Below, piece by piece: positions 9,676-63,995 of a stretch of DNA of 64,000 nucleotides (positions are counted from its first letter, which is position 1; the number at the start of each line of letters is the position of its first letter). A program made the translations under genes and the position numbers. Origin of the DNA: an uncultured Sulfurovum sp. (GTDB taxonomy: Bacteria > Campylobacterota > Campylobacteria > Campylobacterales > Sulfurovaceae); assembly GCA_902727895.1 (NCBI GenBank), contig CACVAP010000090.1:5129-69128 (forward strand). Reading direction: 5' to 3'. The notes below the pieces were generated by a model that saw nothing but the letters and a program-made list of their open reading frames with translations, ran no database searches and was not told the origin of the DNA.

Positions 9676-11205
9676 TTATTTTAATTTTTCTAAAACTATC
9701 TTCAGCTCTTCTATAAGTTCTATACTATTTAAACATTCTTTACGATAAATTTCAATTTCCTCATTACTATGAGAAGAAGGATTAAATAAAATATTTTTAT
9801 AAAAATCTACTTTTATTAAAATAGATTTTAGATTTGATAAATCACATTTTTTCTGGGTTATTTCATTATTAATAACCTCTAAAAGCTCTCGCACTTTATC
9901 TATTTTTTTATCTTCATCCATTGTACTATTTAATATTCCCAATAAATTAGGAATACGTTTATTAATTTGATTCAAAAGGTCATGAGGCTTTACAGCAAAA
10001 ATAATATCATTAGATTTTAAAGCACCAATCATATCTTCTAGTTTTTCCATTTTTCCTATTTCTAATAACTGTTTAAATTCATGAACAATTTTTTCAAATT
10101 CTTTTCTTAAATAATTACCACTACTATGAAATTCTCCCCGTTTCAATTCTTTCTTTGCACGGTACAAATAGTTTACATTACTTTCTTTTATTAGTGCAGT
10201 TTCATGATTATTTTCTCTAAATAAAAATATATTTTTAATATCCCACTTCTCATTTTCATGTCTTATGTTTAACATTCTATTTATTAAATTATAAAACTGA
10301 ATATTATGAGTCAAAATAATTTTCTGGTACTTTCCAAAATTATCTAGAATATATTGAATAATTAGTTTTCTATTTGCCATATCTAAACTAGTTAGAAAAT
10401 CATCTAAGACTAAAAGCTTTAAGTCACTATTAGTCTCATACTTTTTAGCTAATGCAAAATAAATAGCAATAGAAATAAGTTTTAATTTAGCTTCATTAAA
10501 GTGATTTTTAAAATCTCCTTTATCATCAATATCTTTTACTTTTATAGCTATTTTAGGAGAGATAAACTTTTTAGTATCAAATTGAATATCAGAATCCTTA
10601 ACTTCAAAAATAATTTCAAAATTTTCATCTAACTTTTTTAAAATAATATTTACCTCATCTAAAGGTATCTTCTCTTGAAATTTTTCTTTAAATAATCTAT
10701 CAGCCTCTTGTCTCTCTATAACTAATTTTTCTTGTTCATCAATACTACTTCTGTTGACGCTTGTCCGAATCGTCCTATAAATAGAATCTAACTCTGTAAG
10801 TAATGGAAAATGTTTTATCAATTCACTATTAATAACTTGATAGAAATCATATTGAGTAATTTTCTGAAAAACCTTTTCATCTGCAAAATAAATAGTTTGA
10901 TTCTCTAACAGCTCTGCATTAGTTAATATATTATTTTCTCTGTTTAAGTAATTATTATTTAACTCAATATTAACTTCTAAATTCTCAGTAGAGAACTCTC
11001 TATGTATAAATTTCTCTTTTATATCTATTTGATTGGTCACTATTTTCTTATCTTTAAAATAGTAAAAGTTACTATAAAGAGCTTTATATATTGAGCTTTT
11101 ACCTGTTCCATTTTCTCCATAAACTAAGAAGTTCTGTTCGCTTATATCAAAATCTAGGTTATGATGAAATTTGAAGTTTCTAATTATCATATTATTTATT
11201 TTCAT
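9676..11205 (-). CDS. SMC/ABC-type (AAA_13-like) ATPase with extra C-terminal domain, partner of the DUF262 gene
   Basis: Walker A GENGTGKSS, then a ~200-aa helical insertion. Signature-like NEAKLKLISIAIYFAL, Walker B/D-loop LLVLDDFLTSLD and H-loop ILTHN follow. I place the start at ATG 11205 (MKINNMIIRNF...), not the track's 11247. AAGGAG lies 9 nt upstream and the upstream gene's TAA ends 1 nt before it. Confidence 0.75.
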   Translation of the reverse strand: MKINNMIIRNFKFHHNLDFDISEQNFLVYGENGTGKSSIYKALYSNFYYFKDKKIVTNQIDIKEKFIHREFSTENLEVNIELNNNYLNRENNILTNAELLENQTIYFADEKVFQKITQYDFYQVINSELIKHFPLLTELDSIYRTIRTSVNRSSIDEQEKLVIERQEADRLFKEKFQEKIPLDEVNIILKKLDENFEIIFEVKDSDIQFDTKKFISPKIAIKVKDIDDKGDFKNHFNEAKLKLISIAIYFALAKKYETNSDLKLLVLDDFLTSLDMANRKLIIQYILDNFGKYQKIILTHNIQFYNLINRMLNIRHENEKWDIKNIFLFRENNHETALIKESNVNYLYRAKKELKRGEFHSSGNYLRKEFEKIVHEFKQLLEIGKMEKLEDMIGALKSNDIIFAVKPHDLLNQINKRIPNLLGILNSTMDEDKKIDKVRELLEVINNEITQKKCDLSNLKSILIKVDFYKNILFNPSSHSNEEIEIYRKECLNSIELIEELKIVLEKLK

Positions 11206-11206
11206 C

Positions 11207-12931
11207 TTAATTAAACTCCTTGCTTCTATACTTATCATTCTCATCATCTAAGAATATCGCTAACCTTTTAATTAACTCTTTAGTCCTATCTTCAAGGTTC
11301 GTACCCACCAATTCATATTCTGAAATTTTTTTCCCTATTTTTCTTACATCTTTTATGTTAGAATTCAAAAATAATTTTACTTGATTATCAAAACTATTAT
11401 AATTTTGGGTAAAGTCTACAACTATTTTATTACCTAAACTTTTTTTAATTTCAGTATATTTATCTGGATAAAATGGAGAAGCCAACCACAGCTTTTTAGT
11501 AAGGTCGTTTCTTTTTTTCTTATCTTCTATTGTTAGAAGTCCATCTTTCTTATCATGTGAATTCATTTTTTGCATTATCTTTTTATCTAAAGTACTCATA
11601 GTGTCATGAATCATTATATAATTAAAAGAAAATAAAGGAGAAATTGCATTTTGCTCATTATTTAAATAAAAACTTAACAGAGTAAAAATATCTAATGATA
11701 AATCTTTTGGAATTTTATAACTATCTTTTACTAACTCATCAATTTTCAATTGAACCATCTCATAATTTTTTAGAATAAATTTTCTAATATATCTTCGAGA
11801 AAATAAAATCAATGAGTCATATTCTTGATGCTTATCTTTAGGATAATCCGTTAAACTAGTTTTATATAATTTTAAAATTAATTCTATATCAATTTTCTTT
11901 TTTTTATCTATATACTTAATAACTTGAAAGTACTTTGCCAATACAGGGTATACTTGTGGTCTATTAGAAACATCATTGTAAAAATTTATAGACTCTATTA
12001 TTCTAAATAAGTCATTAAATATTTCTTGATATTTTTTATGATTAAATGGAGAATCTTCTTTTTCTAAGAAAAAAATTCTTAAGTTAATCTCATTTTCAAT
12101 TTTGTTATTTTTATCAATATGAGCATATATCTTAAAGATTTCATCTATAGAGTAATTTATTTTATCAGAATAACTATATAATTTTTTCCATTGTTGAATA
12201 AACTCTTTATGTTCTAATTCATTTAATGCCATAGAGTATAGTCGTGCCTTAAATATATCAGAAGTAGAAAGACTTAATCCTCTATTATTGATGGTTTCAA
12301 AAATTTTCAATGCTTTTTCTCTAGCTTTATCAGCATCCTCATCTTCTGTTTCAATAGGTAATATATAGATAGAATCTAATAAAAAATCTGAAAACTTCAA
12401 TATATCATTATGTTTTTTAAACTCTTTTAACTCATTATAAAAATAACAAATATTTTTCTTAAATAAATTGTCTTTTTCTTTGATAGAATTACAAATATCA
12501 CTAGAAAGATTAAAAGCTAAAACTTCTTTAAAATAATTAAAATCTTTTTCCATAAAGACAGTGGTTTCTAATCGTTGTATCTCTTCATCTGTTCTTCTAT
12601 CTTTTATCCATATCGCATCATATAGAGCTTTATTATCTTTATCAAAACTCAATAATACCTTTAAAAGTAAAGTTAAAGAAGTAAGTCTCTGTTGACCATC
12701 AATAACCTCTAACTTATTTCTTTCTTCTCTACTTTTAGCAAGAACAATATTCCCCAAAAAATACCCCTCTTGCTCACTATCATAAAATGCTTTTTTTATA
12801 TCTTCAAAAAGTGCTTTACATTCAATATTTGTCCAAGAGTAGGCTCTTTGATATGGAGGAATAATATATTGATTCTCTCCACTAAAAATTTTATATATTG
12901 ATTTTTGTTCTGCATTTAATGTTAACGCCAT
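11207..12931 (-). CDS. DUF262 (GmrSD N-terminal, ParB-like NTPase/nuclease fold) domain protein
   Basis: 574 aa. Has the hallmark DUF262 motifs IPPYQRAYSW and VIDGQQRLTSLTLLL. The C-terminal third resembles a DUF1524 His-Me finger only weakly (IMIHD ... SLGNKIVV ... NYNSFDNQVK). Confidence 0.85.
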   Translation of the reverse strand: MALTLNAEQKSIYKIFSGENQYIIPPYQRAYSWTNIECKALFEDIKKAFYDSEQEGYFLGNIVLAKSREERNKLEVIDGQQRLTSLTLLLKVLLSFDKDNKALYDAIWIKDRRTDEEIQRLETTVFMEKDFNYFKEVLAFNLSSDICNSIKEKDNLFKKNICYFYNELKEFKKHNDILKFSDFLLDSIYILPIETEDEDADKAREKALKIFETINNRGLSLSTSDIFKARLYSMALNELEHKEFIQQWKKLYSYSDKINYSIDEIFKIYAHIDKNNKIENEINLRIFFLEKEDSPFNHKKYQEIFNDLFRIIESINFYNDVSNRPQVYPVLAKYFQVIKYIDKKKKIDIELILKLYKTSLTDYPKDKHQEYDSLILFSRRYIRKFILKNYEMVQLKIDELVKDSYKIPKDLSLDIFTLLSFYLNNEQNAISPLFSFNYIMIHDTMSTLDKKIMQKMNSHDKKDGLLTIEDKKKRNDLTKKLWLASPFYPDKYTEIKKSLGNKIVVDFTQNYNSFDNQVKLFLNSNIKDVRKIGKKISEYELVGTNLEDRTKELIKRLAIFLDDENDKYRSKEFN

Positions 12932-27295: not shown

Positions 27296-27319
27296 TTTCC
27301 CATCTTTATAGATGGGAAA
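27296..27319. terminator. hairpin between convergent genes (putative bidirectional terminator)
   Basis: TTTCCCATC-tttata-GATGGGAAA, a 9-bp perfect stem. It lies 9 nt after the cytochrome c stop and 9 nt after the VOC gene stop. Confidence 0.5.
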
Positions 27320-27327
27320 CTTATACT

Positions 27328-27663
27328 TTAATTACTTTTTAACTCTATCTTTCTTCCATCTGGATCCTCTACAACAAAAACATTTTTATCTTCATATTGA
27401 TATTGAGAACAAACAACTATTGTTTCTCTTTCTAAGTATTCAAAAATATTTTCAATTTCCATTAAAAAGCCCAAACGAATATTGTCTATCTCAGAACCTT
27501 TTGTTAATGGATAGAGTTCCATCACCAACTCTTCCATTAATGTTGAATAATGTACAGGACCTTTTCCGTGCTGTTCTTGTACAAAAGTTAAGCCTAGTTT
27601 CTCATAGAACGCTTTGCTTGTTTTTATGTTTTTACATCTTAGGACTAGTAAGTTTAGTTGCAT
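27328..27663 (-). CDS. VOC (glyoxalase/bleomycin-resistance) family protein
   Basis: 111 aa. The N-terminus LLVLRCKNIKTSKAFYEKLGLTF and overall size fit a single VOC module. It overlaps the upstream ARH gene by 10 nt. The antisense track ORF 27312..27707 is rejected. Confidence 0.6.
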   Translation of the reverse strand: MQLNLLVLRCKNIKTSKAFYEKLGLTFVQEQHGKGPVHYSTLMEELVMELYPLTKGSEIDNIRLGFLMEIENIFEYLERETIVVCSQYQYEDKNVFVVEDPDGRKIELKSN

Positions 27664-28418
27664 TGAGTTTTAAACCTCTCCAAAATTCCAACAAACTCAT
27701 CAGATAAATAATCATTTATTTTTTCTTCTATCTCTTTGGGAACTCCATAATATGCCTCAGCAATCCCACCTGCTATCGCTCCCATAGTATCAGCATCTCC
27801 ACCTAATGACACACAGTTACGTATACAATCTTCAAATGTATCAGAATCTAAAAAACAGATAATCGACTCAGGCACTGACTTTTGACAAGATACCTCAAAT
27901 TTATAAGTCGGTCGTATCTCATCTACAGTTCGCTTTAAATCGTACTCAAAGCCTTTAGATATTCGTTCTCGAATCTCCTCTTTACTTTTCCCCATTCGTG
28001 CCATAAAAATAGCCAATGCCGTAGCCTCTGCCCCTTTTATTCCTTCTGGATGGTTATGCGTAATTTCAGCCGATTTTCGAGCCTCTTCTAAAACTTTTTC
28101 TTCATTATCAAAAGCCCATGCTATAGGTGAAACCCTCATGGCTGAACCATTACCCCAAGAGTTGTAAGGCTCATGACTTTCGGCTTTAAGCCATTTTTTA
28201 AATGAGCCACCATAACCAACTTCAAAATAACGCAGACCAAAATCTACAACATTATCTAAATAAGGTTCGTCATCCAAAATAGACTTGGCTATTGCCATAC
28301 TTAGTGTTGTATCATCCGTAAATTTACTCTCAGGATGAAACAACTCAAACTCTTTTGTCTTTATAGCATGAAACTCATACCACGAACCTATAATATCACC
28401 TGCTATTGCTCCTAGCAT
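27654..28418 (-). CDS. ADP-ribosylglycohydrolase family protein
   Basis: 254 aa. Contains MLGAIAGDIIGSWYEF, TDDT, GNGSAMRVSP, THNHPEG and GGDADTMGAIAGGIAEAYYG, the full set of ARH/DraG-type motifs. Confidence 0.85.
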   Translation of the reverse strand: MLGAIAGDIIGSWYEFHAIKTKEFELFHPESKFTDDTTLSMAIAKSILDDEPYLDNVVDFGLRYFEVGYGGSFKKWLKAESHEPYNSWGNGSAMRVSPIAWAFDNEEKVLEEARKSAEITHNHPEGIKGAEATALAIFMARMGKSKEEIRERISKGFEYDLKRTVDEIRPTYKFEVSCQKSVPESIICFLDSDTFEDCIRNCVSLGGDADTMGAIAGGIAEAYYGVPKEIEEKINDYLSDEFVGILERFKTQCN

Positions 28419-28444
28419 TTTTTATCCTTTAATATTTTTTTATC

Positions 28445-29032
28445 TTATACTCCAAATCCACTACTATATAAAACATCTGAACGCATAGCATACTTTATTC
28501 CTTTTATAACCTCATCACCTCGATGTCTATAGCGATGATAAAAGAAAAGTGCTGTTCCAGCTTTAGGTTGAACTGTAAAATCAATAAAACCTTCATCTGT
28601 TCCTATATTTTTAAATGAAGTACCTCCACCTTTAAAATCATCATTTAAATAGACAAAAAAAGTAAAATAACTTGTTGTAAATGGATTTGGTGTATAAAAG
28701 CCATCTACATGCCAATCAAACTTTTGTCCTACATCGTAACGATAAAATTGAATTCGACTATTCAAGCTATCAACTTTTCGTGCGTTAAAAGTTTTAGGTA
28801 AATAACGCTTCATTCGTTTCCATAACTCTTCCGAAAACTCTACACTGTCATAAGTAAACCGAGTATTGTTTCTAACACTATTATTTTCAACGGCTCCATT
28901 ACTAGTATTAATAGTTGCTTTTTTCATACCATTTAACTCTGCTAATTCAATGTATTCCTTACATTCTAATTGAGTTAAAAAATTATCTACTTGAAATATA
29001 TTATCTGCTAATTTTTTATATATAAATGTCAT
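28445..29032 (-). CDS. 2OG-Fe(II) oxygenase, prolyl-4-hydroxylase-like
   Basis: 195 aa. HxD in FDWHVDG, then FFVYLNDDFKGGGTSF, PKAGTALFFYHRYRHRGDEV (distal His) and KYAMRSDVLY. Confidence 0.7.
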   Translation of the reverse strand: MTFIYKKLADNIFQVDNFLTQLECKEYIELAELNGMKKATINTSNGAVENNSVRNNTRFTYDSVEFSEELWKRMKRYLPKTFNARKVDSLNSRIQFYRYDVGQKFDWHVDGFYTPNPFTTSYFTFFVYLNDDFKGGGTSFKNIGTDEGFIDFTVQPKAGTALFFYHRYRHRGDEVIKGIKYAMRSDVLYSSGFGV

Positions 29033-29035
29033 TAT

Positions 29036-29392
29036 TTATTCCTTAAACTTTATTTCTTTATCAAAAAATGCATACAATGCATTCTCAATAATACCTATAA
29101 CTTCATTTAAATCACTATCATTTGTTTCTCTAAAAAATGCTTCATTCACATAGTCATCAATTTCTATAATATAAGATTTATTTGGCATTAAAAACAAACA
29201 ATAAACTTCCCCCTCTGCCCACTCTCTACCTATAGGATTTAAAAGTGTTAGTAACATATCTTTTTTATTGGAAACTGCTCTCGTCCATTTGTTTGAAGGT
29301 ATTCTGTCTAAATAACTTGGAAATATTTTATATTTTCCAAGTTGTATATTTTCTCGTTCTAAATTTTTTGGTAGTTTTTTATAAAATTTCAT
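29036..29392 (-). CDS. hypothetical protein (118 aa)
   Basis: Clean ORF whose stop lies 3 nt from the next gene's start. Very AT-rich. No recognisable motif. Confidence 0.45.
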   Translation of the reverse strand: MKFYKKLPKNLERENIQLGKYKIFPSYLDRIPSNKWTRAVSNKKDMLLTLLNPIGREWAEGEVYCLFLMPNKSYIIEIDDYVNEAFFRETNDSDLNEVIGIIENALYAFFDKEIKFKE

Positions 29393-29441
29393 TTTATTTT
29401 CCTTATATTTTTTAAGCCTTTCAGCAACACATCATTTCATA

Positions 29442-29849
29442 CTAATTTTTATTAACGGTGGATTGAAGACTAAATTTAATACTTACACAATAGCAAATAT
29501 CAGTCATCGATTTATTACTATTAACCCAAATATTCATAGACTCTTCTAAAAGCTTCTTATTTTCTCTTGTTCCTAAAGACTTACACTTATAAAAAGTTGT
29601 AAATTTTTTCATATCAGGGTCAAAAAATGTACTTGTTTCATTTAACTCTATTTCTACTTTTGAATATTTATCAGCTAACATATATCTTACACCTATAGAA
29701 AAAAACCATACATCCGTTATTTTGTCATATAAACCTTGATGCTTAATATTGAACTCTTTTTGAAACTGGGATTTATATTTACTCCATAATCCATCTAAGT
29801 TATATTTTGCTATCTCTTTTTCAGTAATTTCTCTTCTCATAAATGGCAT
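29442..29849 (-). CDS. hypothetical protein (135 aa), translationally coupled to nadV
   Basis: ATG at 29849 has GAGG 7 nt upstream, inside the nadV 3' end. An alternative ATG at 29840 forms an ATGA overlap with the nadV stop. No recognisable motif. Confidence 0.45.
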   Translation of the reverse strand: MPFMRREITEKEIAKYNLDGLWSKYKSQFQKEFNIKHQGLYDKITDVWFFSIGVRYMLADKYSKVEIELNETSTFFDPDMKKFTTFYKCKSLGTRENKKLLEESMNIWVNSNKSMTDICYCVSIKFSLQSTVNKN

Positions 29850-31207
29850 CTTCTAACCTCATCAAACCCAAACTCTTTTAACAACTTCCCATTCCTAAAC
29901 ACAGGAACTAAAAGATTCTCCCTATCCCCCAACTCCTCAACCCTTACAGTCTCAAAATCTTTAGTCAAACCCAACCTCCCCCTCTTAGACCTCTTCCCAC
30001 TATCAGTAACAGGGTCTTTATAAACATCTCGCCACTCTCCATCAACACAAATAGCCGAAGCTTTCATGGCAAATCTAAAGTCATCTCTATTAGGTTCTTG
30101 TAAAAGACCTCCACCCATTCCAAAGGCGATGTTATCAGCAGAAAAACCTTCATTTTTTAAAACTTCCAATATCTCTTTAATAGCTTCCTTATCTACCCCA
30201 TCACCTTGGATAATACGTACTGAATCATCTAAAACAATATAACCTTTTGAATTCTTATATCCTCCAAAGGTTTTATAGACTCGTTTCATCACTTCTAGGA
30301 CTATCTCTTTTGGTTCTCCTGAGTCTGGGCGAATGACTAAAGTTGCTCCACTCTGTTTTACTTGTTCTTTTAGCTCTTTACCCCAAATGTTACTTACAGC
30401 ATTGTAGATGTCATATGAGTCTGAAACCACAGCAAAGATTTTACCCTCTCCTCCAAACTGTTTAACCATGTTAGCATAAGCATCACTTTCACCTTCTCTT
30501 TGCCATGAAGTCATGGTTGAGTGTTCAGAAGCTGGAATGGAAAAACCTGCCATCTCTGCTCCATAGTATCTTCTAGCACCCATAACTCCTGACAAGTTAT
30601 CAGTACCTTGAAAATTGACTAAGTGAGCCATGCCACCAAGCATTGCTGATTCTTCACTTGATGTTCCTCTAGCTCCAAAGTCGTGTAGTTTAAAAGGAAG
30701 TTCAGCCTCTACATTATCACTTGTTTCTTCTAGGTAGTTTCGGATAATCTCTTTTATAGAGTATGAAAGGGTCGCTACCGTTGTTGGAAACCATATGGCT
30801 CTGAGTAAAGCTGTCTCCATATATGACGTTAACCATGGAACCTTCTTATCAGTATTGATTACTTGTACCAAGGGGCATTTTAAAGGTATTAACATTCCTT
30901 CTTTTACTGCTGATATCTCTATGGGTAAATACCCCTCATATTCATCTAAAATATATTGCCATCCCTCTTCGTTAAAAGGTAATCCGTGAGCCGTTATGAT
31001 TGCTTTGGCTTCATCTATGTCCTCTTGGGTAATCGGCGTTAACAAGTACTCTTTTATGAATGCTTGTAATCCAAAGAAAAGTGTTTTAGGGTAGTCTCCA
31101 CCTCGTGCTTCTATGTATGAAGAAACATACTCACTCTTTGGTGGGTATTGTAAGTAGTGACTTGATTTGTAGCTGTCTGTGTTTAGTATTATGTTCTTTG
31201 TGTTCAT
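29837..31207 (-). CDS. nadV: nicotinamide phosphoribosyltransferase (NAMPT)
   Basis: 456 aa. The N-terminus NIILNTDSYKSSHYLQYPP, DFGARGTSS and RPDSGEP are characteristic of NadV/NAMPT. Confidence 0.9.
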   Translation of the reverse strand: MNTKNIILNTDSYKSSHYLQYPPKSEYVSSYIEARGGDYPKTLFFGLQAFIKEYLLTPITQEDIDEAKAIITAHGLPFNEEGWQYILDEYEGYLPIEISAVKEGMLIPLKCPLVQVINTDKKVPWLTSYMETALLRAIWFPTTVATLSYSIKEIIRNYLEETSDNVEAELPFKLHDFGARGTSSEESAMLGGMAHLVNFQGTDNLSGVMGARRYYGAEMAGFSIPASEHSTMTSWQREGESDAYANMVKQFGGEGKIFAVVSDSYDIYNAVSNIWGKELKEQVKQSGATLVIRPDSGEPKEIVLEVMKRVYKTFGGYKNSKGYIVLDDSVRIIQGDGVDKEAIKEILEVLKNEGFSADNIAFGMGGGLLQEPNRDDFRFAMKASAICVDGEWRDVYKDPVTDSGKRSKRGRLGLTKDFETVRVEELGDRENLLVPVFRNGKLLKEFGFDEVRRCHL

Positions 31208-31261
31208 AGAAAATCCTTCTATTATGATAAATGTTCTTTACCGTCTTTCGGTTTGGAACCT

Positions 31262-31407
31262 GTAGGTCGGGCTGTCCTCTGCCCGACACCTATTTAAATA
31301 ACCAATATATTTCATTGTTCAATGTATATTTTTATGCCAATAACTTTTGTTTTATTGAGTTTTTATTTTATGCATATTATTGTCGGTCAGAGGACAGCCC
31401 GACCTAC
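31262..31407. repeat. MITE-like/BIME-like element bounded by 26-nt inverted REP-type hairpins
   Basis: Left end is GTAGGTCGGGCTGTCCTCTGCCCGAC (31262-31287). The right end (31382-31407) is its reverse complement with 25/26 identity. Each end is itself a 7-bp-stem hairpin, and the AT-rich core is about 94 nt. Confidence 0.6.
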
Positions 31408-31412
31408 GATTT

Positions 31413-32423
31413 CTACCCAACCATAGCCTGAATAATATGAAAATGATCTTCAAACATCATTTCAGGCTTTACTTCAGCAAAAGGAACCCAAAAAGCTTTG
31501 GCAGCGTCATCACCACCTTTTACTTTTGGTAGACTCTCACCTTTTAACTCTATGAGATAAGCATGGGTAACGGTACGACCTCGTGCTGAACGGTGTGGGT
31601 TATCAAATACTTCTTGTTTTGTAATGCTTCCTGCTAAAACAGGAGCTGGTACTTTTATGCGTGTCTCTTCTCTTAGTTCACGAATAACAGCTGTTTTTAA
31701 TGTCTCATTCCCATCTAAAAATCCACCAGGTAATGCCATAAGACCTTTTCCTGGTTGGGCTTTTCTTTCTATGAGTAAAATATGTCCAGACTGAACCACC
31801 ACAGCATCTACGGTAATGAACATTGGTGTGTAAGGAGCTTTGTCCCATGCACTCTTGTATTTCTTTACAAAATAAAATTCATTTTGAACTTCTTCAAATG
31901 CTTTAGTCTTTTTGAACTTTTCTAAAGCCATGGCTATATTAGAATTTAATGGATTTGTAAACTCTTGATCATCAAAATAAAGTTCTCTAATATCTGTAGA
32001 AGAAATATTTTCATAGTTCTCTACCTCTTCACGTTCCCATTGAGGAAATTGTGTTAAGTAGTCTGATGTATTGTCTTTTTGGTGACCTATGAGTCCAACT
32101 TTGGGTTTAGAAGCAATCTTATTATGCACAACACCTGAAACCAAGAGTTGAACGGATTTAATCCATAATTGGTTGTTGTAAGTTTGGTCAAGTAGAGGAA
32201 AAGCTAAAATTCGTCTGTTTTCTTCTTCTGAAAAAGCCAAACGCATAAATGATTCTCGTTCATTAAAATCCCATGGATTACGAACCGTACGTGGCTGATA
32301 AGCTGAACCAACTAAAACAATAACTTTGTCTGATAATTGTAATGCTTTACGAATAACACTTTCGTGTCCTGTGTGAAATGGCTGAAATCTGCCTATAAAA
32401 ATGAGGTAATCATACTTCATCAC
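31413..32423 (-). CDS. nadM: bifunctional NMN adenylyltransferase / Nudix (ADP-ribose pyrophosphatase-type) hydrolase
   Basis: 336 aa. N-terminal nucleotidyltransferase motif FIGRFQPFHTGH and C-terminal Nudix box GGFLDGNETLKTAVIRELREETRI. Confidence 0.9.
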   Translation of the reverse strand: MMKYDYLIFIGRFQPFHTGHESVIRKALQLSDKVIVLVGSAYQPRTVRNPWDFNERESFMRLAFSEEENRRILAFPLLDQTYNNQLWIKSVQLLVSGVVHNKIASKPKVGLIGHQKDNTSDYLTQFPQWEREEVENYENISSTDIRELYFDDQEFTNPLNSNIAMALEKFKKTKAFEEVQNEFYFVKKYKSAWDKAPYTPMFITVDAVVVQSGHILLIERKAQPGKGLMALPGGFLDGNETLKTAVIRELREETRIKVPAPVLAGSITKQEVFDNPHRSARGRTVTHAYLIELKGESLPKVKGGDDAAKAFWVPFAEVKPEMMFEDHFHIIQAMVG

Positions 32424-32449
32424 TAAGCTCCTTAGCGAAATAAATTTAC

Positions 32450-32455
32450 ATTATA
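32450..32455 (-). promoter_or_regulatory. putative -10 box (TATAAT on minus strand) for the nadM cluster
   Basis: The minus strand reads CCCATATAATGTAAATTTATTTCGCTAAGGAGCTTAGTGATG. TATAAT lies about 16 nt upstream of the AAGGAG RBS of nadM. Confidence 0.25.
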
Positions 32456-34982: not shown

Positions 34983-35444
34983 ATGTTTAAACTAAATGAA
35001 GTAAAAGCACACTGTGACGTACCTTGTGGGATCTATGATCCATCAGCAGCTCAAATTGCAGCATTATCAGTAATCAGAATGATTGACTTAATGAATACAG
35101 CAGAAAAAGGTGCTGATGACGTAGCATACCATAATGATATGGCAAGATATGTTGCTGTTAAAGAAACAGAAGCTATTAAATGTAAAGACGAAATTGCTAT
35201 TATTTGGGGAGACTTTATTAAGCCTCCACACTTAATTAAATACCCAGATTTACATACACTAGCTCATAAAATCATGATGCTTGGTGGTGCTGCTAAGCAA
35301 CACGCATCAAGAGAAAAAGGTATGGAATTACTTGCAGCAGTAAACGAATTTGCAGCAATTTTCTGGGAAATCAAAGGTGTTAAAACTCAAACAGTTACAG
35401 CTCCTTACGCTCCTAGCGAATCTGTAATTTCTCCAGTTCTTTAA
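34983..35444 (+). CDS. sodN: nickel-containing superoxide dismutase precursor
   Basis: 153 aa. A 9-aa leader MFKLNEVKA is followed by the Ni-hook HCDVPCGIYDP. DFIKPPHLIKYPDLHTLA matches the region I remember from Streptomyces NiSOD (DYFKPPHFESYPELHTLV). Confidence 0.9.
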   Translation: MFKLNEVKAHCDVPCGIYDPSAAQIAALSVIRMIDLMNTAEKGADDVAYHNDMARYVAVKETEAIKCKDEIAIIWGDFIKPPHLIKYPDLHTLAHKIMMLGGAAKQHASREKGMELLAAVNEFAAIFWEIKGVKTQTVTAPYAPSESVISPVL

Positions 35445-35455
35445 GAACTACTTTT

Positions 35456-35734
35456 ATGATTAGAATCTTTAAAGTTTCTGGTCATTCTCTCTTCCCACTT
35501 CTTCAAGATGGGCAGAGAGTTTTCTGCATTAAAACTTTCAACTTTACTAAACTTAAAATATCAGACATTCTTGTCTTTGAAAAAGAACCCCATGGTCTTA
35601 TGATTAAAGAATTAAAGTCCATAGATGAAAAAGGTTATTTTGTTCAAGGTACAGATCCTTTTAGCATTGACAGTCGTGACTTTGGTAGCATAAGTAAAAA
35701 AAGTATTAAATACAAAGTCCTCTTTAAATTTTAA
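35456..35734 (+). CDS. sodX: NiSOD maturation protease (S26 signal-peptidase-like)
   Basis: 92 aa. Ser motif VSGHSLFPLL, Lys region MIKELK and the C-terminal QGTDPFSIDSRDFGSIS (GDN..S.DSR.fG pattern). It lies 12 nt after sodN. Confidence 0.7.
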   Translation: MIRIFKVSGHSLFPLLQDGQRVFCIKTFNFTKLKISDILVFEKEPHGLMIKELKSIDEKGYFVQGTDPFSIDSRDFGSISKKSIKYKVLFKF

Positions 35735-58460: not shown

Positions 58461-58894
58461 TAACGAATCGACCTTATGTTGGTTTGACTTAACTTATATA
58501 TTTTAGAAGCTTGTCCATTTTTTTTCTTAGGAAAAGAAACTATCACTTCGGCATTGTCTTTGGCGTATTGTTCTTCATAGTCTGCACCACTTAAGTTTGC
58601 TGAAGAAGAGTAAAACCATTTGAGCCGATCTAAAAGTAAATTGTGTTCCGTATTTTTAACCACACGAAATGACAAGCCATTGGGCATAATAAACGTTGTT
58701 CGTTTAGCACGACGCACACGGTTTTTAAATTTGTTAGGAACACGCGTAAATGTTTGTAAAGTTTCTAAAGAATTAACCACCTGTATATAGTGCTTATTTG
58801 GCTTCCTCTTTTTAGCTCGGTCTATTTTTGTACTCTCTTGAGAAACAAAGCCTATGGTGGTGTCTGTTTGGGTTAGGTAGAGGTTAGTTTTCAT
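58460..58894 (-). CDS. short Sua5/YciO/YrdC/YwlC family protein
   Basis: 144 aa. TDTTIGF (compare TDTVYG) and SSANLSG (compare TSAN.SG). TAATG overlap with nagA. AAGGAA RBS lies inside the end of the giant upstream ORF. Confidence 0.65.
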   Translation of the reverse strand: MKTNLYLTQTDTTIGFVSQESTKIDRAKKRKPNKHYIQVVNSLETLQTFTRVPNKFKNRVRRAKRTTFIMPNGLSFRVVKNTEHNLLLDRLKWFYSSSANLSGADYEEQYAKDNAEVIVSFPKKKNGQASKIYKLSQTNIRSIR

Positions 58895-61800
58895 TTAACT
58901 TCCTTTGTGCTAATGTTTTATTATTAATTGTCCTAAACTTCAATGGTAAAAAATATTTAGAATACTCCAAAGGTAACTCCATTAAGAGTTTATTAATTAT
59001 TACCTTTATCTCTTCATCATTTTCAAGACTAAATAATCCTAAATATTTTGAGAAAAGTTTAATTCTTAATTCAATATTATTTGTTTGCTTAATAGGCATG
59101 TAAATTAGTATTTCAAATAATGTAGCTCTTTGCTGTTTAGTTGTTATTTTAAGAGATATATTTTTAATATCTTCTTTAACTTTATTAGAAATTTGATAGT
59201 CATTAATATTTTTGAGTTGCTTTACAAAAAATAATGAATCATATAAACTTAGTAAAACTTGTTCTTCTGTATCTGAAAGAGGGGTATATTTTTCTATGGT
59301 TTCTACCAATCTATTTTTTAAATCATTACTCAGAGGGTAAACATTATATTTTAAATTAAAAAATGTAATAAATATAGAGTTATTTTCATTAGATACCTCT
59401 TCCATTTCTTCTAGCATCTCTTTTAATCTTGGGAAAGTATCTAAAATAGAGTTTTCTTCTAGTTGTAAAAAAGAATTAATAGCATTAAATCTATTATGTG
59501 TTAATTGTGTGAAATCTGGATAAGCGTCTTCTCTTATTAACTCTTCTAATTTTCTTTTTATAATAGAACTACCAAAGTAATCAAGGTTATCATCTGTAAT
59601 ATATGAAATAGAAGTCATTACAAATTCCTCATAGCTTAAATCATAATTCAACAAGTCCATACTATATGAACTATCAGGTCTAAATACTTCTAAAGTAACT
59701 CTATTAGAATGAGTCTTAAATTCTTTAAGTATCCAACTATAATCTACACTATAAGCAGTAAAATATTTCATTAGTTTATTGCTATGCGACCAAATAAGGG
59801 CTATTTTCATATCATCATTTAAAGTAGTAAATTTAATATCAAACTCTTGTTTAATAAATTTCTTTATAGCAAAGAATGCTTCTAATCTTAATTTAAATTC
59901 TTTAGTAAATATCTTTTTTGTCAGATAGAGTATAAACTTTTTATAGCTATCATTTTGAATAGACACCAAGACTTTTATAAGTTGTATATGTGATATTGGT
60001 GTAGATGAAGTATTTAAAAATGCTTTTAAAATTTCTTTTTGTTCTTTGTCTATTTTATCTTTTAATATATCAATGATTTGTTGAGGAAAAGAGATAGGGA
60101 AATGATGTATCTCATCAATGGTCTTTAAAATATCTTCTTCATTTACAAAAGTTTCTACAGAGAGATTAAATGCTTCATTAAATTCAAGGCTACTGTCTAG
60201 TCTAAAATGATTTAAAAGTATATCTATATTATCAGGAATTAAAGAGTCAAAATTTAACCTTTGCTTTTCTAAATCCTTTTGAATATTAGAGTAAAATTTA
60301 GAATCTTCTTTAACTTGATATAGTTTTTCTATTCTCTCATGATGATTCTGAACATTAATAATATCATGGATTAACTCTTTTTTCTTTGTATCTGACATGT
60401 CAAACCATTCAGGGTTTGCTTCTAATAACTTTTTTCTCTTAGGTCTTGATGTTGATAAAAGCATAAAGGTATCATTCATAAAGCCCTGATTATTAATTTT
60501 AATTCGTTTTTGATTTTCAATTATAATAGATTCTAAAATAATAGATTCATTCTTATCTATAGCTTTTATTATCTCTTTACCACCACCATTTATAACTTTT
60601 TTAATTTGATTATTAAAGACTTCATTATTGAATAATAAACCATTGACACCTATTCTTTTTTCAAATGGTAACTTTTCTATTAATTCTTTATTTTCATATA
60701 AATTATTTTTAATTTTTTCAGGTAAATTGCTAATCAGTCCTATAACTATTATCTGCTCCTCTTCTTTTAAATCTTTTATAAAAAAACTTTGAATTAATGA
60801 ATAGCTTAGGTTATCAATAAAATTTTGAAATAACTCAGAATTAGCCTTAAAAAACTTTGATATCAAATTATGATATATCCAATCAAAATACAATTTTTGA
60901 TTTTCATCAGAAATAATAGTAATTGCTTGAATAAATAGACTTGTAATTTCTATTACAGTCATAGTTCTTGTAATATCAGTATTATCTGATAGTTTATTTT
61001 TTATTAAAGAGAACATATTTAAAGTAAACAAGTTTTCTAAAACCCAATTTAAATAAATATATCTATCTTCTTCGTATTCAAAATCTTCATTCCATAAATC
61101 AATAATACTATGATTTATCTCTCTTACTTGATTTATTACAAAAAATGGTTCTGAATATTGGTTATTCTCTATCTCTGTTTGTTCAAATGGTTTAATATAT
61201 TTAAAATTCTGAACCATAAATTGTAATGACTCTTTTAATGTTTTTAAATCTTCACTTTCTTCTACTCTATTCCCTTCTATTTTACACTGTTTTAGATGAT
61301 AAATTATTTCTTTTGAACTAATAAGTAAAAAAAGATACTTTCTTTTTCTTATTTCTAATAAGCTAGAGTAGTATTCATGTTTTGTGATTATCTTACTTTT
61401 ATAAAATGTAAATAGTATATCATTTACACTAATTATTTCATTTTCATTTTTAGTTGTTTGAAAACTATTAACATATCTATCATCTATACAAATTAATATA
61501 TTATCTTTTTGAAATTCTAATAAAGTATAAATTGAAAGAAGTAAGTTTGATGACTCTTCTTTATCTTTTAATTTTTCTTTACTTACTTCAGGAGCATAAT
61601 ATAATTTTTCAAGTTTAAAATTTATTTTTAACAACTCTATTAACTCATGAGAAACATTAATATCATGCAAAATAAAAAATATATTACTTGGTAAATAAAC
61701 TTTAACAAAGGAATCAATGACTAGCTGTAACTGATGAATTGAGAACAATAAAAGTAAAGAAGTTATATCCAAATATAATTTAGCACTTTTAAATTTTTCA

Positions 61801-63995
61801 AGTTCTAAAAAAGTATATTTTTTGGCACTTCTAATATAAAGAGTTTTTTGATTTTCTTTACAAAAGCTATTAAAAAAATCTCTATCTAAATAATGAATTG
61901 AAATATCAGAGTTTTTATACAGAGTAGTTTCATGATTTTTTTGTTCATTAATTTTAGATGCGTATCCTTCAATTTCATTAAGGTTTATCATCTGACCTAT
62001 GATACTTTTATCCTCAATTAATTGGGGTAAATATGAAATTACTAAGTCATTTATAATACCATTTTTATGCAAATCTAAAGCCAGTTCTTTTTCTGATTTA
62101 TTTATACCATTATTATTTATGACTTCTTGTAAAAGAACAGAGCTATTTTTAGATACTGATGCAATTTGGATTTTAGAGTTAATATCAATATTTGGATTTT
62201 TAATTACATTAGTTGCCAAAGTTTCTAATTTATCTTGAGAGTCAGTTTTTTTATAAAAATAAGTTAAATTTGATATATCCTCTAATTTATTTGTAAAGTT
62301 ATTTTTTTCATAAATTTGTATTGAGCGTTCAGGAAAACCTAATGAGCTTTCACAAGTAGCCTTTATCTTTAAAAAGCTATCTTTTATTAATTTACTATTA
62401 ACTTTAGGTAACCATATATCTATAAGTTTATTTGCTTTATCAAAGTTTTGACTATTTATTTCCCCTAAAATAACTAATTCAACAACCTTTTCAGTTTGAA
62501 AATACTTTAACAAATAATCTGAATATTCAGTAATATATTCCCAATTATTCTCTTCTGATTTCATCTCACAAATTTTTAAGCGATAAATAGGATTTTTATT
62601 CTCTTTAAATAATTTCTCATATAACTCAGAAGCTGACTTATAATCATTGGTCACTTTATATATATGAGCCTTAACATCATCTTTTCTACTCATATCATTT
62701 TCATCAACAAATTTTAAAGCCTCTTTATAAAGTTCAAAATTTATTAAAATATTTATATAGTACTCTCTCCAATAATCTATTTTATTTTCTTCAAGATAAA
62801 TATTTTTATATTTATCTAATACTTCAAATGTTTTCTTTTTATCTTCCTGTTTAAAATAATACCTAATCAGAGTATCTGCTTTGTATAGATTATTAATATC
62901 TTCATCTAACTCTAAATTCTTTATATCCTCTCTAATATCTATGTTTAAATCATAAATAATATTAAATTGAACAGCCACAAGTCTATACTTTTTATCCTCA
63001 TATAAACTTTGAATATACTCTATAGCTTCATCTATGTTTATTAACCATTTAATAGTTGCTATCCAAGCTTTATCTCTATATTCAGAATTCTCTTTTTCAA
63101 CTTCATCTAGTATAGTTTTTGCCATATTTATTTTTTCTTGGCTTTTACTGTCTATTTTTAATGCATTTTTTTGAATAATAGGTGGAAGTAAATTAGGAAG
63201 AACATCATATAGTGTTGATTGGTAAAAAAGAATAATAGCTTTTACTCGTTTTGATTCTAAATAATTGTCTTTTATATCTAATGATTTATTTATATCTTTT
63301 AATGCTTGTTCATGATTATCATCTTTACGGTACAATTCATACAATGATTTCAGTCTATAAGTTTCATGATTTCTATCTTTTATATCAATAAGGTCTAATG
63401 TTGCCTTTACATCTTGAAAATTATTTGTACTCATATATAATGCTATTTTTTGATTTAATGTTGCTACTTCATTGTTATCAAGTAATAAAATAGCTTTAGC
63501 TAGGTCACCTTTATCAAATTCAATCCAAGATAAAAGTCTATTTACATATAATGAACTATCTAATTGTTGTACCTTATCTACTAAAGATTCAGTTTTATCA
63601 GATTCATTAGTTATAGATACTCTAGCTTCTTCATAAACTATTTTAGCTTTTTGTTGATTTGAAAGAATACTCCATTTAGGAGATATTTTAATTTCATCTA
63701 TCCAAGTTTGTACCTCTTTTTCTGTTCCATTAAGATATTCATCTTTGATTTTTTTGAACTCTTTTGTAACTTCCTCTTGAATAATAATCTTATACTCATC
63801 TAATTGCAAACTACTTGATTGTTGTAGAGAGCTTGATACTTCTATGCTTGTTGACTCTAGTGTTACTATCTCAATACCACCATACTTTTCTAAAGAAATA
63901 TCTTTCAATAAAAAACTAACATTTATACAATCAAATGAATTATTATCTGTAATAACCTTAGATATTACTCCTGTAAGCATATAATCACTATTCAC
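58884..63995 (-). CDS. giant hypothetical protein (at least 1703 aa) with TPR-like repeats and an internal PIN-like region; N-terminus may lie outside the window
   Basis: Uninterrupted 5.1-kb ORF. The track start is GTG at 63995, but the frame is still open to position 64000. The N-terminal third is helical-repeat rich. I saw no Walker A motif. Very AT-rich. Confidence 0.6.
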   Translation of the reverse strand: MNSDYMLTGVISKVITDNNSFDCINVSFLLKDISLEKYGGIEIVTLESTSIEVSSSLQQSSSLQLDEYKIIIQEEVTKEFKKIKDEYLNGTEKEVQTWIDEIKISPKWSILSNQQKAKIVYEEARVSITNESDKTESLVDKVQQLDSSLYVNRLLSWIEFDKGDLAKAILLLDNNEVATLNQKIALYMSTNNFQDVKATLDLIDIKDRNHETYRLKSLYELYRKDDNHEQALKDINKSLDIKDNYLESKRVKAIILFYQSTLYDVLPNLLPPIIQKNALKIDSKSQEKINMAKTILDEVEKENSEYRDKAWIATIKWLINIDEAIEYIQSLYEDKKYRLVAVQFNIIYDLNIDIREDIKNLELDEDINNLYKADTLIRYYFKQEDKKKTFEVLDKYKNIYLEENKIDYWREYYINILINFELYKEALKFVDENDMSRKDDVKAHIYKVTNDYKSASELYEKLFKENKNPIYRLKICEMKSEENNWEYITEYSDYLLKYFQTEKVVELVILGEINSQNFDKANKLIDIWLPKVNSKLIKDSFLKIKATCESSLGFPERSIQIYEKNNFTNKLEDISNLTYFYKKTDSQDKLETLATNVIKNPNIDINSKIQIASVSKNSSVLLQEVINNNGINKSEKELALDLHKNGIINDLVISYLPQLIEDKSIIGQMINLNEIEGYASKINEQKNHETTLYKNSDISIHYLDRDFFNSFCKENQKTLYIRSAKKYTFLELEKFKSAKLYLDITSLLLLFSIHQLQLVIDSFVKVYLPSNIFFILHDINVSHELIELLKINFKLEKLYYAPEVSKEKLKDKEESSNLLLSIYTLLEFQKDNILICIDDRYVNSFQTTKNENEIISVNDILFTFYKSKIITKHEYYSSLLEIRKRKYLFLLISSKEIIYHLKQCKIEGNRVEESEDLKTLKESLQFMVQNFKYIKPFEQTEIENNQYSEPFFVINQVREINHSIIDLWNEDFEYEEDRYIYLNWVLENLFTLNMFSLIKNKLSDNTDITRTMTVIEITSLFIQAITIISDENQKLYFDWIYHNLISKFFKANSELFQNFIDNLSYSLIQSFFIKDLKEEEQIIVIGLISNLPEKIKNNLYENKELIEKLPFEKRIGVNGLLFNNEVFNNQIKKVINGGGKEIIKAIDKNESIILESIIIENQKRIKINNQGFMNDTFMLLSTSRPKRKKLLEANPEWFDMSDTKKKELIHDIINVQNHHERIEKLYQVKEDSKFYSNIQKDLEKQRLNFDSLIPDNIDILLNHFRLDSSLEFNEAFNLSVETFVNEEDILKTIDEIHHFPISFPQQIIDILKDKIDKEQKEILKAFLNTSSTPISHIQLIKVLVSIQNDSYKKFILYLTKKIFTKEFKLRLEAFFAIKKFIKQEFDIKFTTLNDDMKIALIWSHSNKLMKYFTAYSVDYSWILKEFKTHSNRVTLEVFRPDSSYSMDLLNYDLSYEEFVMTSISYITDDNLDYFGSSIIKRKLEELIREDAYPDFTQLTHNRFNAINSFLQLEENSILDTFPRLKEMLEEMEEVSNENNSIFITFFNLKYNVYPLSNDLKNRLVETIEKYTPLSDTEEQVLLSLYDSLFFVKQLKNINDYQISNKVKEDIKNISLKITTKQQRATLFEILIYMPIKQTNNIELRIKLFSKYLGLFSLENDEEIKVIINKLLMELPLEYSKYFLPLKFRTINNKTLAQRKLNEN

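Follow-up and report, generated by a model that had tools for sequence, protein, structure and literature searches.

An ADP-ribosylhydrolase gene in a chromosomal nadM-nadV salvage operon of an uncultured Sulfurovum, and its possible role in recovery from ADP-ribosylation or NAD+ depletion

Introduction

For host-encoded systems centered on an ADP-ribosylglycohydrolase (ARG), a role against viral ADP-ribosylation has been predicted (Iyer, Burroughs, Anantharaman, Aravind 2022, Viruses 14:1977, PMC9503650, section 3.8). Besides the ARG, these systems are composed of an NrtR or WYL regulator, phosphatases including an alarmone-type HD enzyme, chaperones, Macro or NADAR domains, and nucleases. 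More than 42% of them have a Nudix-helix-turn-helix (NrtR) or WYL regulator, and about 55% a coupled phosphatase of the rhodanese-phosphatase, calcineurin-like, HD or HAD type (PMC9503650). In phages, NADAR genes adjoin NadM and NadV (PMC9503650, sections 3.4.3 and 3.6), and the NAMPT and NMNAT-Nudix pair is put to use in the NARP2 pathway (bioRxiv 10.1101/2024.02.11.579819). The present study concerns seven co-directional open reading frames (ORFs) on the minus strand, at positions 27328-32423, of a 64-kb stretch of DNA (the window) from a metagenome-assembled genome (MAG) of an uncultured Sulfurovum. Here, nadM and nadV stand together with genes for an ADP-ribosylhydrolase (ARH), a 2-oxoglutarate (2OG)-Fe(II) oxygenase, a VOC protein, and two small orphan proteins.

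As judged from gene content and synteny, nadM-Nudix, nadV and the ARH3-type ADP-ribosylhydrolase gene form a conserved core, and the stretch from nadV to the ARH gene is a slot of fast turnover. We weigh below whether this core acts as a repair and recovery module, and how the other genes relate to it.

Results

The first gene of the cluster, nadM (31413..32423, minus strand), encodes a bifunctional nicotinamide mononucleotide (NMN) adenylyltransferase/Nudix ADP-ribose pyrophosphatase of 336 residues. It scores 496.4 bits against NF003786 (cut-off 397), matches PF01467 and PF00293, and its translation contains the motifs HTGH and ISSTDIR and the Nudix box GGFLDGNETLKTAVIRELREET. Orthologs with 67-91% identity lie upstream of nadV in Campylobacterota loci. 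The nicotinamide phosphoribosyltransferase gene nadV (29837..31207, minus strand; 456 residues) scores 641.9 bits against NF006629 (cut-off 405) and matches PF18127, PF04095 and phrog_448. On these family models and motifs, NadM and NadV of the window are assigned to the non-deamidating NAD salvage pair.

The ARH gene (27654..28418, minus strand) encodes a short protein of 254 residues, which matches PF03747 at 134.4 bits (threshold 26.2) and phrog_6572; its closest structures in the PDB are those of ARH3 (E 6e-18). An alignment of its subfamily with phage members and with divergent ARHs of Cellvibrio and Thiotrichaceae (A4) left D8, E15, T34-D35-D36-T37, T120-H121, D208 and D210 invariant. 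These residues match the binuclear metal site, the catalytic Glu and the 'TH' motif of ARG domains as described in PMC9503650. The window ARH is thus classified, by fold and motif, as an ARH3-like member of the ADP-ribosylglycohydrolase superfamily with all ARH3-type catalytic residues kept. It is neither a DraG nor a Tri1 equivalog by the respective models, scoring 79.6 bits against TIGR02662 (cut-off 337) and 39.1 bits against NF041672 (cut-off 490).

Eighty genomic nadV loci were surveyed together with the window, giving 81; the window proteins were mapped onto them, neighboring ORFs were clustered, and partners were counted by hidden Markov models. Over these loci, which were chosen by similarity to NadV or ARH, are phylogenetically non-independent and in many cases lie on short contigs, an ARH was found at 13, NADAR at 10, and one or the other at 17. 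The association of ARH with nadV/nadM extends over Sulfurovaceae, Sulfuricurvum, Cellvibrio, Alcanivorax and Thiotrichaceae. Within Campylobacterota, by our own count, ARH or NADAR lies downstream of nadV in 11 of the 14 loci (window included) that have about 2 kb or more of sequence there. Orthologs of the window ARH with 72-91% identity follow nadV in L003, L004, L006, L012, L014, L058 and L106.

What stands between nadV and ARH differs from locus to locus. In Sulfuricurvum (L012, L014) the ARH gene follows nadV after a gap of 20 nucleotides. An HD gene separates the two in L006, NADAR and HD genes in L058 (nadV-NADAR-HD-ARH), and a gene for a 343-residue protein in L003. L004 reads nadV, a small ORF, VapBC, a 253-residue protein, NADAR, KptA and then ARH. 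Four loci (L009, L011, L013, L018) have nadV followed by NADAR, and L002 has DUF4917 in this place. In L005, an opposite-strand membrane protein gene and a YoeB pair precede a VOC gene, and L007 and L017 carry no such genes downstream of nadV.

In the gammaproteobacterial loci the ARH position varies further: it is between nadM and nadV in Cellvibrio and upstream of nadM in Thiotrichaceae L021 (ARH-KptA-NadM-NadV). In Alcanivorax (L020), the ARH gene lies beside a divergent NrtR-like gene and adjoins NadM. The Cellvibrio operons hold one to three ARHs and combine NrtR, PTPase, NadM, NADAR, DUF4291, NadV, PnuC, NadR-like and NadE genes. For example, L023 has divergent PTPase and NrtR genes followed by NadM-ARH-NADAR-DUF4291-ARH-x-ARH-NadV-SPFH-x-2OG (x, a further gene), and L045 reads NadM-NADAR-DUF4291-ARH-TonB receptor-PnuC-NadR-like-NadV-2OG-x-x-NadE-2OG-cytidylyltransferase-Smr. 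DUF4291 is a proposed ADP-ribosyltransferase (ART)-like family, which is a frequent neighbor of Nudix, Macro, ARH and KptA genes (PMC12522546). The gammaproteobacterial ARHs beside nadM/nadV are only 25-34% identical to the window ARH, and this low identity suggests that different ARHs were recruited to nadM/nadV repeatedly.

Within Sulfurovaceae, pairwise identities are 85-91% for ARH and 85-89% for NadV, and the ratios of nonsynonymous to synonymous substitution rates (dN/dS) are 0.06-0.11 and 0.03-0.06, respectively. By these measures ARH diverges in step with NadV, although the intervening genes are different in every genome. Furthermore, the GC content of the core genes (nadM 0.36, nadV 0.39, ARH 0.38) contrasts with that of orphan 1 (0.26), orphan 2 (0.26), the oxygenase gene (0.29) and the VOC gene (0.30). 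The parallel divergence and the GC contrast together make an ancestral nadM-nadV-ARH arrangement, with later insertions between nadV and ARH and after ARH, the simplest history.

The slot of the window is occupied by the low-GC genes of orphan 1, orphan 2 and the P4H-like oxygenase, and the VOC gene was added after ARH. These three slot genes appear to be mostly recent low-GC acquisitions. In the relatives, the slot contains NADAR, KptA, HD phosphatase, DUF4917 or toxin-antitoxin pairs, or is empty; AlbA-like genes occur there too. Remnants of the L003 gene for the 343-residue protein were found in L004 (9507-9629, just upstream of ARH), in L005 (3624-3776, just upstream of VOC) and in L104 (5878-5973). 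The remnants in L004 and L005 are direct evidence of gene turnover at the slot.

The 343-residue slot protein of L003 (11434-12465) itself has no match in Pfam, NCBIfam or the PDB. A macro/PARG-like identity, suggested by eye from its GGGVFGND motif, was dropped on these empty searches. Another slot resident is a DUF1152 protein directly after orphan 2 in four metagenomic contigs: intact in L088 (633-1577), cut by the contig end in L089 (685-1137), and truncated in L086 (756-1094) and L087 (742-1080).

The two orphans behave quite differently in comparison, and neither matches Pfam, NCBIfam, PHROGs or PADLOC. Orphan 1 (29442..29849, minus strand; 135 residues) is a strict ORFan in a clean insertion of about 380 nucleotides, a segment not present in the relatives in our alignment of the junction from the nadV 3′ end to orphan 2 (A3). 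No homolog besides itself was found by a word search among 5.8 billion clustered proteins, and none by exhaustive phmmer among 1.84 billion representative proteins. Its ORF extends from one insert edge and reaches into the conserved flanking sequence, a length reached in 2 of 5000 shuffles, with frame 0 preferred; orphan 1 is probably expressed, and a chance ORF seems unlikely. The insertion has also altered the C-terminus of NadV, which reads RRCHL in the window versus RGA or RNA in the relatives. The single-sequence AlphaFold2 (AF2) model of orphan 1 has a mean predicted local distance difference test (pLDDT) value of 41 and is unusable. Since it is specific to the window genome, orphan 1 cannot be a general component of such operons.

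Orphan 2 (29036..29392, minus strand; 118 residues), on the other hand, is a conserved small protein. It has five homolog clusters with 68-75% identity on eight other contigs, on six of which it stands directly after nadV and starts about 80 nucleotides past the nadV stop codon. What follows it is an ARH gene in L092 (directly, 91% identical), DUF1152 in L088 and L089, and a YoeB toxin-antitoxin pair in L090. With dN/dS values of 0.27-0.44, orphan 2 has the signature of a genuine, fast-evolving gene under purifying but relaxed selection. AF2 on six sequences reached pLDDT 70, and a Foldseek search of this model against the PDB gave no significant match (best E 0.34). A small peptide-binding chaperone with a TY-Chap or YbjN-like fold, as in ARG-centric systems, or a SUKH-like immunity protein would be candidate identities for orphan 2. 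The non-coding block of about 75 nucleotides between nadV and orphan 2 (29393-29466, minus strand) is near-invariant in the window, L086, L088, L090 and L091, and more conserved than the flanking coding sequence (A3). It contains a GCC-GAAA-GGC tetraloop-type hairpin and the ribosome-binding site of orphan 2. In the window its intergenic part is 29393..29441, and the last codons and the stop codon of orphan 1 lie inside the block (to about 29466).

The oxygenase gene (28445..29032, minus strand) encodes 195 residues that match PF13640 at 45.6 bits (threshold 27), phrog_61 and the PADLOC '2OG' model. Its best PDB match is the PBCV-1 P4H (5c5t, E 9e-7), followed by the Bacillus anthracis and Chlamydomonas P4H enzymes, at 22-30% identity. 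The translation shows H108-V-D110 and H172-x9-K182 (HRGDEVIKGIK). By analogy to P4H enzymes, we take H108, D110 and H172 to be the iron triad and K182 to be the 2OG-binding lysine. On fold and motif, the protein is assigned as a P4H-like 2OG-Fe(II) oxygenase. The GC content at third codon positions (GC3) of its gene is 0.14.

Among the 81 loci, the P4H-like oxygenase is present at four, namely the window and three Cellvibrio loci; no other Campylobacterota nadV locus has it, and outside the window its adjacency to nadV is confined to Cellvibrio. Its closest relatives (40-43% identity) adjoin htpG and a DAHP synthase gene, and the idea that the family is generally NAD-linked was rejected on that ground. 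The link of the oxygenase with NAD genes, at some two or three independent events, is suggestive but thin. A high-GC metagenomic contig (L101, 1574-4590) was seen to carry GTP cyclohydrolase I, a 291-residue P4H-like 2OG oxygenase, PnuC and NadR-like genes in a row, a further sporadic link of such an oxygenase with genes of NAD uptake or salvage.

The VOC gene (27328..27663, minus strand) encodes a small VOC/glyoxalase-fold protein of 111 residues, with a marginal match to PF00903 (23.8 bits, threshold 20.6) and a weak one to PDB entry 3g12 (E 0.01). Of the other nadV loci, L005 alone has a homolog (64% identity, dN/dS 0.27), which lies outside the nadV operon with opposite-strand genes between.

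The short ARH, of about 255 residues, belongs to a large family in vent and Campylobacterota metagenomes. Six family members on long contigs were sampled without regard to nadV: one is in a NadM...NadV-HD-ARH arrangement (L106), two stand with a PARP-like transferase (L107, L108) and three are in unrelated contexts. In L107 (7001-9367) and L108 (7001-9424), an ARH that is 67-69% identical to that of the window is followed by a protein of about 340 residues, which has no Pfam hit and a membrane-spanning look by eye, and then by a 187-residue PARP-like ADP-ribosyltransferase. Both triads lie in defense-rich islands, with CHAT/caspase/NB-ARC genes in L107 and DO-GTPase/GAP1 genes in L108, and look like writer-eraser toxin or defense modules. 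The pairing of a window-type ARH with a PARP-like writer is good evidence that such ARHs act on macromolecular ADP-ribose adducts.

Short ARHs with 46-58% identity are also present on more than 563 viral contigs of IMG/VR, where other NAD or ADP-ribose genes are almost never near. Such abundance tempers the view in print (PMC9503650, section 3.4.2) that phages seldom carry ARG domains. In GenBank phages, neither nadV nor nadM lies within 12 kb of the homologs of the ARH and the oxygenase. The ARH is a mobile 'eraser', and its joining to NAD salvage is a cellular, not a viral, arrangement.

The layout of the cluster largely bears out the initial annotation, which had placed seven minus-strand genes with these domains in a tight row; ORFs and curated models agree with it throughout. 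Its spacings were also reproduced, namely an overlap of 13 nucleotides between nadV and orphan 1, gaps of 3 and 26 nucleotides on either side of the oxygenase gene, and an overlap of 10 nucleotides in which the VOC gene covers the ARH stop. A gap of 49 nucleotides between orphan 1 and orphan 2 was absent from it. The palindromic element that it had noted between nadM and nadV is real: within the 205-nucleotide spacer, a 146-nucleotide inverted repeat (31262..31407) has arms of 40 nucleotides (31262-31301 and 31368-31407), 83% complementary and 66 nucleotides apart. The window has no other such element, and chance alone would give 0 matches.

The transcription signals proposed at the two ends held only in part. 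The hairpin at 27296..27319, which separates the VOC gene from the convergent cytochrome c gene and marks the end of the transcription unit, is strong (10-bp stem, 4-nucleotide loop). In the consensus scan its T-run lies on the plus strand, which makes it formally the terminator of the cytochrome c gene; it may be active in both directions. Ahead of nadM (32428..32455, minus strand), a candidate -10 box, a perfect TATAAT at 32455-32450, and a ribosome-binding site AAGGAG can be read by eye, but the consensus scan gave no promoter or terminator at this place. The intergenic gaps from the nadM stop to the VOC stop contain no terminator-like sites. Two minus-strand terminator-like matches fall within coding sequence, one in nadM and one in nadV; with three found against 2.3 expected, there is no excess over chance.

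Each arm of the inverted repeat could fold as its own hairpin. The sequence of the element is not kept in the relatives, but the corresponding part of the spacer in L006 and L058 holds analogous GTAGGTYCG...CGRACCTAC palindromes. A riboswitch or other known RNA was rejected, as Rfam returned only miRNA-hairpin artefacts far below gathering scores. Closer to nadV, about 35 nucleotides upstream of its start codon, lies a small hairpin, ACCG-AAAGA-CGGT (31240..31252, minus strand), with equivalents in L002, L005, L006, L007, L012, L015 and L058 (A2). While its loop, A(T/A)AGA, stays the same, the stem varies in an apparently compensatory way, with GAGTCG/CGACTC in L007, AAACCG/CGGTTT in both L006 and L058 and, in L012, a longer stem rich in GC. 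It has no Rfam family match and may be a cis-regulatory RNA of nadV. In L003, L004, L017 and L106, the spacer has small ORFs instead of a palindrome, two each in L003 and L004 and four with a membrane-spanning look by eye in L106.

The cluster is flanked by hemA, a polyprenyl synthase gene, a cytochrome c gene and an NlpC/P60 gene; integrase and structural genes are absent from these flanks. A search of the 64-kb window with the few available seed proteins found no ART, NrtR, NADAR, KptA or HD gene, although an ART that escapes recognition by such seeds is possible. Elsewhere in the window, a nickel superoxide dismutase-like gene with an N-terminal HCDVPCGIYDP motif (by eye) precedes a small signal-peptidase-like ORF (34983-35734), presumably the usual SodN/SodX pair. 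A low-GC island (about 0.24; 9676-12931) between glycyl-tRNA-synthetase-like and cytochrome b-like genes holds two minus-strand genes, for a 574-residue protein with a DUF262-like N-terminus (QRxYSW by eye) and for a 523-residue P-loop ATPase; it is probably a defense or restriction module. At the window edge, a single minus-strand ORF of 1703 residues (58884-63995) has a GC content of 0.21-0.26.

Discussion

The reading that we favor, with slightly better than even confidence, is that nadM-nadV and ARH make up a chromosomal NAD+ salvage operon whose ancestral third gene is the ARH3-type ADP-ribosylhydrolase gene, and that it serves most likely as a host-side module for repair or recovery after attack by phage or competitor enzymes that ADP-ribosylate targets or consume NAD. 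Observed here are the gene content, the intact catalytic motifs, a synteny that is both recurrent and convergent, and the layered history. From family knowledge, the ARH would strip ADP-ribose from modified macromolecules, and perhaps also release it from small conjugates, and the Nudix half of NadM would cut the free ADP-ribose to AMP and ribose-5-phosphate. Nicotinamide that the ADP-ribosylating or NAD-cleaving enzyme leaves behind would be turned into NMN by NadV with phosphoribosyl pyrophosphate, and the adenylyltransferase half of NadM would then remake NAD+. We infer likewise the substrates of the ARH, expression from a single transcript, the role in conflict and its biological trigger. 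The repair or recovery role is favored because of the pairing of this ARH type with a PARP-like writer, its viral abundance, the conflict-style turnover of the slot, and the match to the ARG-centric template.

The initial annotation had coupled NadM-Nudix/NadV to the ADP-ribosylhydrolase in just such a loop of de-ADP-ribosylation, degradation and resalvage. The coupling is indeed recurrent, in at least five lineages. As for the loop, recurrent synteny and intact motifs sustain it at the level of the three core genes, and not as a system of seven.

Several observations weigh against a recovery module. The window lacks an NrtR or WYL regulator, as only the Nudix domain of NadM matches the NrtR seed, and its cluster has no phosphatase, so that two common parts of ARG-centric systems are missing. 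The slot also takes clearly unrelated cargo (VapBC, YoeB, DUF4917). The ARH-nadV link is not obligatory, with one of the six sampled ARHs beside nadV and three among unrelated genes. In addition, none of the 80 viral ARH loci fetched and examined (L110-L189) has nadV within 8 kb. Finally, the structured 205-nucleotide spacer could uncouple nadM from nadV transcription.

The main rival, unlikely in our judgment but deserving serious weight, is that the operon does housekeeping only. The ARH, like NADAR, KptA and HD, would then handle soluble by-products of the cell's own NAD-consuming reactions, such as O-acetyl-ADP-ribose from sirtuin deacylation and ADP-ribose 1″-phosphate or cyclic phosphate from KptA-type RNA 2′-phosphate removal, and lead the products back to NAD+, with no role in conflict. 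ARH3, to which the window ARH is closest, is also an O-acetyl-ADP-ribose hydrolase (PMC9503650, section 3.4.2). KptA and HD phosphatase genes in the slot of relatives, and KptA again in L021, suit such a function, as do the housekeeping-type flanking genes and the predominance of NAD biosynthesis and uptake genes in the Cellvibrio operons. However, the same operons also hold the predicted ART-like DUF4291 and a PTPase, as in predicted conflict systems, and the ARH subfamily is abundant on viral contigs and paired with a PARP-like transferase in defense islands. Rapid turnover of content among close relatives, together with low-GC insertions, is likewise atypical for housekeeping.

If the recovery reading is extended to the slot, this may be a dedicated cargo site of an NAD/ADP-ribose conflict module, and its residents orphan 2, the oxygenase and the 343-residue protein of L003 would be new components of ADP-ribose systems. 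The oxygenase would then have joined nadV operons independently in Sulfurovum and in Cellvibrio. We hold this extension to be doubtful. In such a setting, the oxygenase could oxidatively remove or modify ADP-ribose adducts, or hydroxylate target proteins, where the ARH cannot act, and orphan 2 could be an adaptor or inhibitor-decoy associated with NadV or ARH.

It appears improbable, by comparison, that the association is a coincidence, with the nadV 3′ end an insertion hot spot and the ARH a passenger functionally unrelated to it. Toxin-antitoxin pairs, DUF4917 and AlbA-like genes do insert there, and the ARH family is mobile and found in many contexts including phages. A mere hot spot would hardly explain why ARHs of different subfamilies came to stand with nadM/nadV in several phyla and several orders, at differing positions, or why ARH has diverged in step with NadV in Sulfurovaceae. 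The other recurrent residents, NADAR, KptA and HD, are, moreover, all ADP-ribose-related.

Quite improbable, too, is a dedicated system of all seven genes, with the oxygenase, the VOC protein and both orphans as working parts of the ADP-ribose/NAD loop. The genes share one strand with tight spacing and overlaps, a P4H-like oxygenase comes after nadV in three Cellvibrio loci and stands beside pnuC and a nadR-like gene in L101, and orphan 2 comes straight after nadV in most contigs that carry it. But the comparative check of co-occurrence speaks against the unit proposed in the initial annotation: the gene set was found in no other surveyed locus, orphan 1 is a clean insertion unique to the window, the oxygenase is limited to two lineages with its closest relatives in housekeeping contexts, and VOC recurs once, outside the nadV operon. 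The GC content of the four genes is also distinctly below that of the core. These four had been put forward as the potentially new part; they turn out to be mostly recent low-GC cargo, with orphan 2 the one conserved after nadV. Comparative support for membership in the module thus points to orphan 2 and, more weakly, to the oxygenase only.

A prophage remnant or mobile anti-defense island, in which NARP2-type NAD+ reconstitution (the same enzyme pair; bioRxiv 10.1101/2024.02.11.579819) would be joined to a phage ARH and oxygenase, is suggested by the matches of NadV, NadM, ARH and oxygenase to phrog_448, phrog_395, phrog_6572 and phrog_61, but is highly improbable and was rejected, as the flanks are of housekeeping type without integrase or structural genes, nadM-nadV is vertically conserved in related MAGs, the GenBank phage homologs (within 12 kb) and the 80 viral ARH loci examined lack nadV nearby, and viral-contig pattern scans (with a single oxygenase sequence, a single ARH sequence and an orphan 2 alignment) found no relatives.

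If the recovery reading is true, removal of the ADP-ribose mark would be hard-wired to the rebuilding of NAD+ from both leftovers, giving the cell a compact recovery kit against ADP-ribosylating toxins and NAD-depleting attack, and a host-side counterpart of the phage NARP pathways. The nadM-nadV-ARH operons of Sulfuricurvum (L012, L014) would offer a small three-gene model for the so far predicted ARG-centric systems. The variable slot would be a hunting ground for new ADP-ribose-handling proteins, with orphan 2 and the nadV-linked P4H-like oxygenases as first candidates.

Among known enzymes, the oxygenase resembles the P4Hs of PBCV-1, B. anthracis and Chlamydomonas and phrog_61 in its PF13640 fold, its HxD...H triad and the lysine ten residues past the distal histidine. 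It differs from them in its 22-30% identity range and in its adjacency to nadV, which is seen here and in Cellvibrio only. Similarly, the window ARH shares with the erasers of DraT/DraG, Tre1/Tri1 and DarT/DarG an ARH-type fold, with an intact binuclear metal site, and its relatives in L107 and L108 have a PARP-like writer. Unlike those pairs, it falls far under the DraG and Tri1 cut-offs, and the few seeds used detected no writer in the window.

Rodionov and colleagues in 2008, and work on NadM/NadV of Acinetobacter and Francisella, reportedly described NrtR-regulated nadV/nadM regulons of Gammaproteobacteria. The window resembles these in having the salvage pair in one operon with an ADP-ribose-linked logic, and the Cellvibrio loci resemble them in having a divergent NrtR-like gene. 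In contrast to these regulons, the window has no NrtR and has instead the structured spacer and the small conserved hairpin before nadV, and it has added ARH, oxygenase, VOC and orphan genes. With the NadV/NatV of phage KVP40 and with NARP2, the window shares the same two enzymes, matching phrog_448 and phrog_395; in contrast to NARP2, its cluster is chromosomal and vertically inherited rather than phage-encoded. An ADP-ribose-processing domain is encoded alongside, as in the phage NadM/NadV-NADAR neighborhoods, but the partner here is an ARH.

The closest resemblance is to the ARG-centric systems. In both, a conserved core is combined with variable, quickly exchanged modules, and free ADP-ribose would be passed to a Nudix domain. 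The window ARG has no recognizable transferase in cis, as judged over the 64 kb with few seed proteins (PARP-like ART, KptA, DUF4291). The relatives of the window cluster link ARH to an alarmone-type HD phosphatase (HD_4, next to the ARH in L006, L058 and L106) and to NADAR, and an NrtR regulator and a PTPase-type phosphatase (the PTPase in L023) are further parts of the Cellvibrio loci. The differences are that the Nudix domain of the window is the catalytic domain of NadM, and that the ARH is tied to the NadV/NadM pair. PMC9503650 describes no ARG-NadV/NadM link, its mentions of NadV/NadM being phage NADAR neighborhoods, phage Nudix clades and phage NAD synthesis, and 2OG oxygenases and VOC proteins do not occur in it. 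The logic that joins ARH to NAD salvage has nevertheless already been predicted in print, in the ARG-centric systems and the NadV/NadM-NADAR neighborhoods (PMC9503650, sections 3.4.3 and 3.8), and the locus described here would be a variant of it with NAD resynthesis built in.

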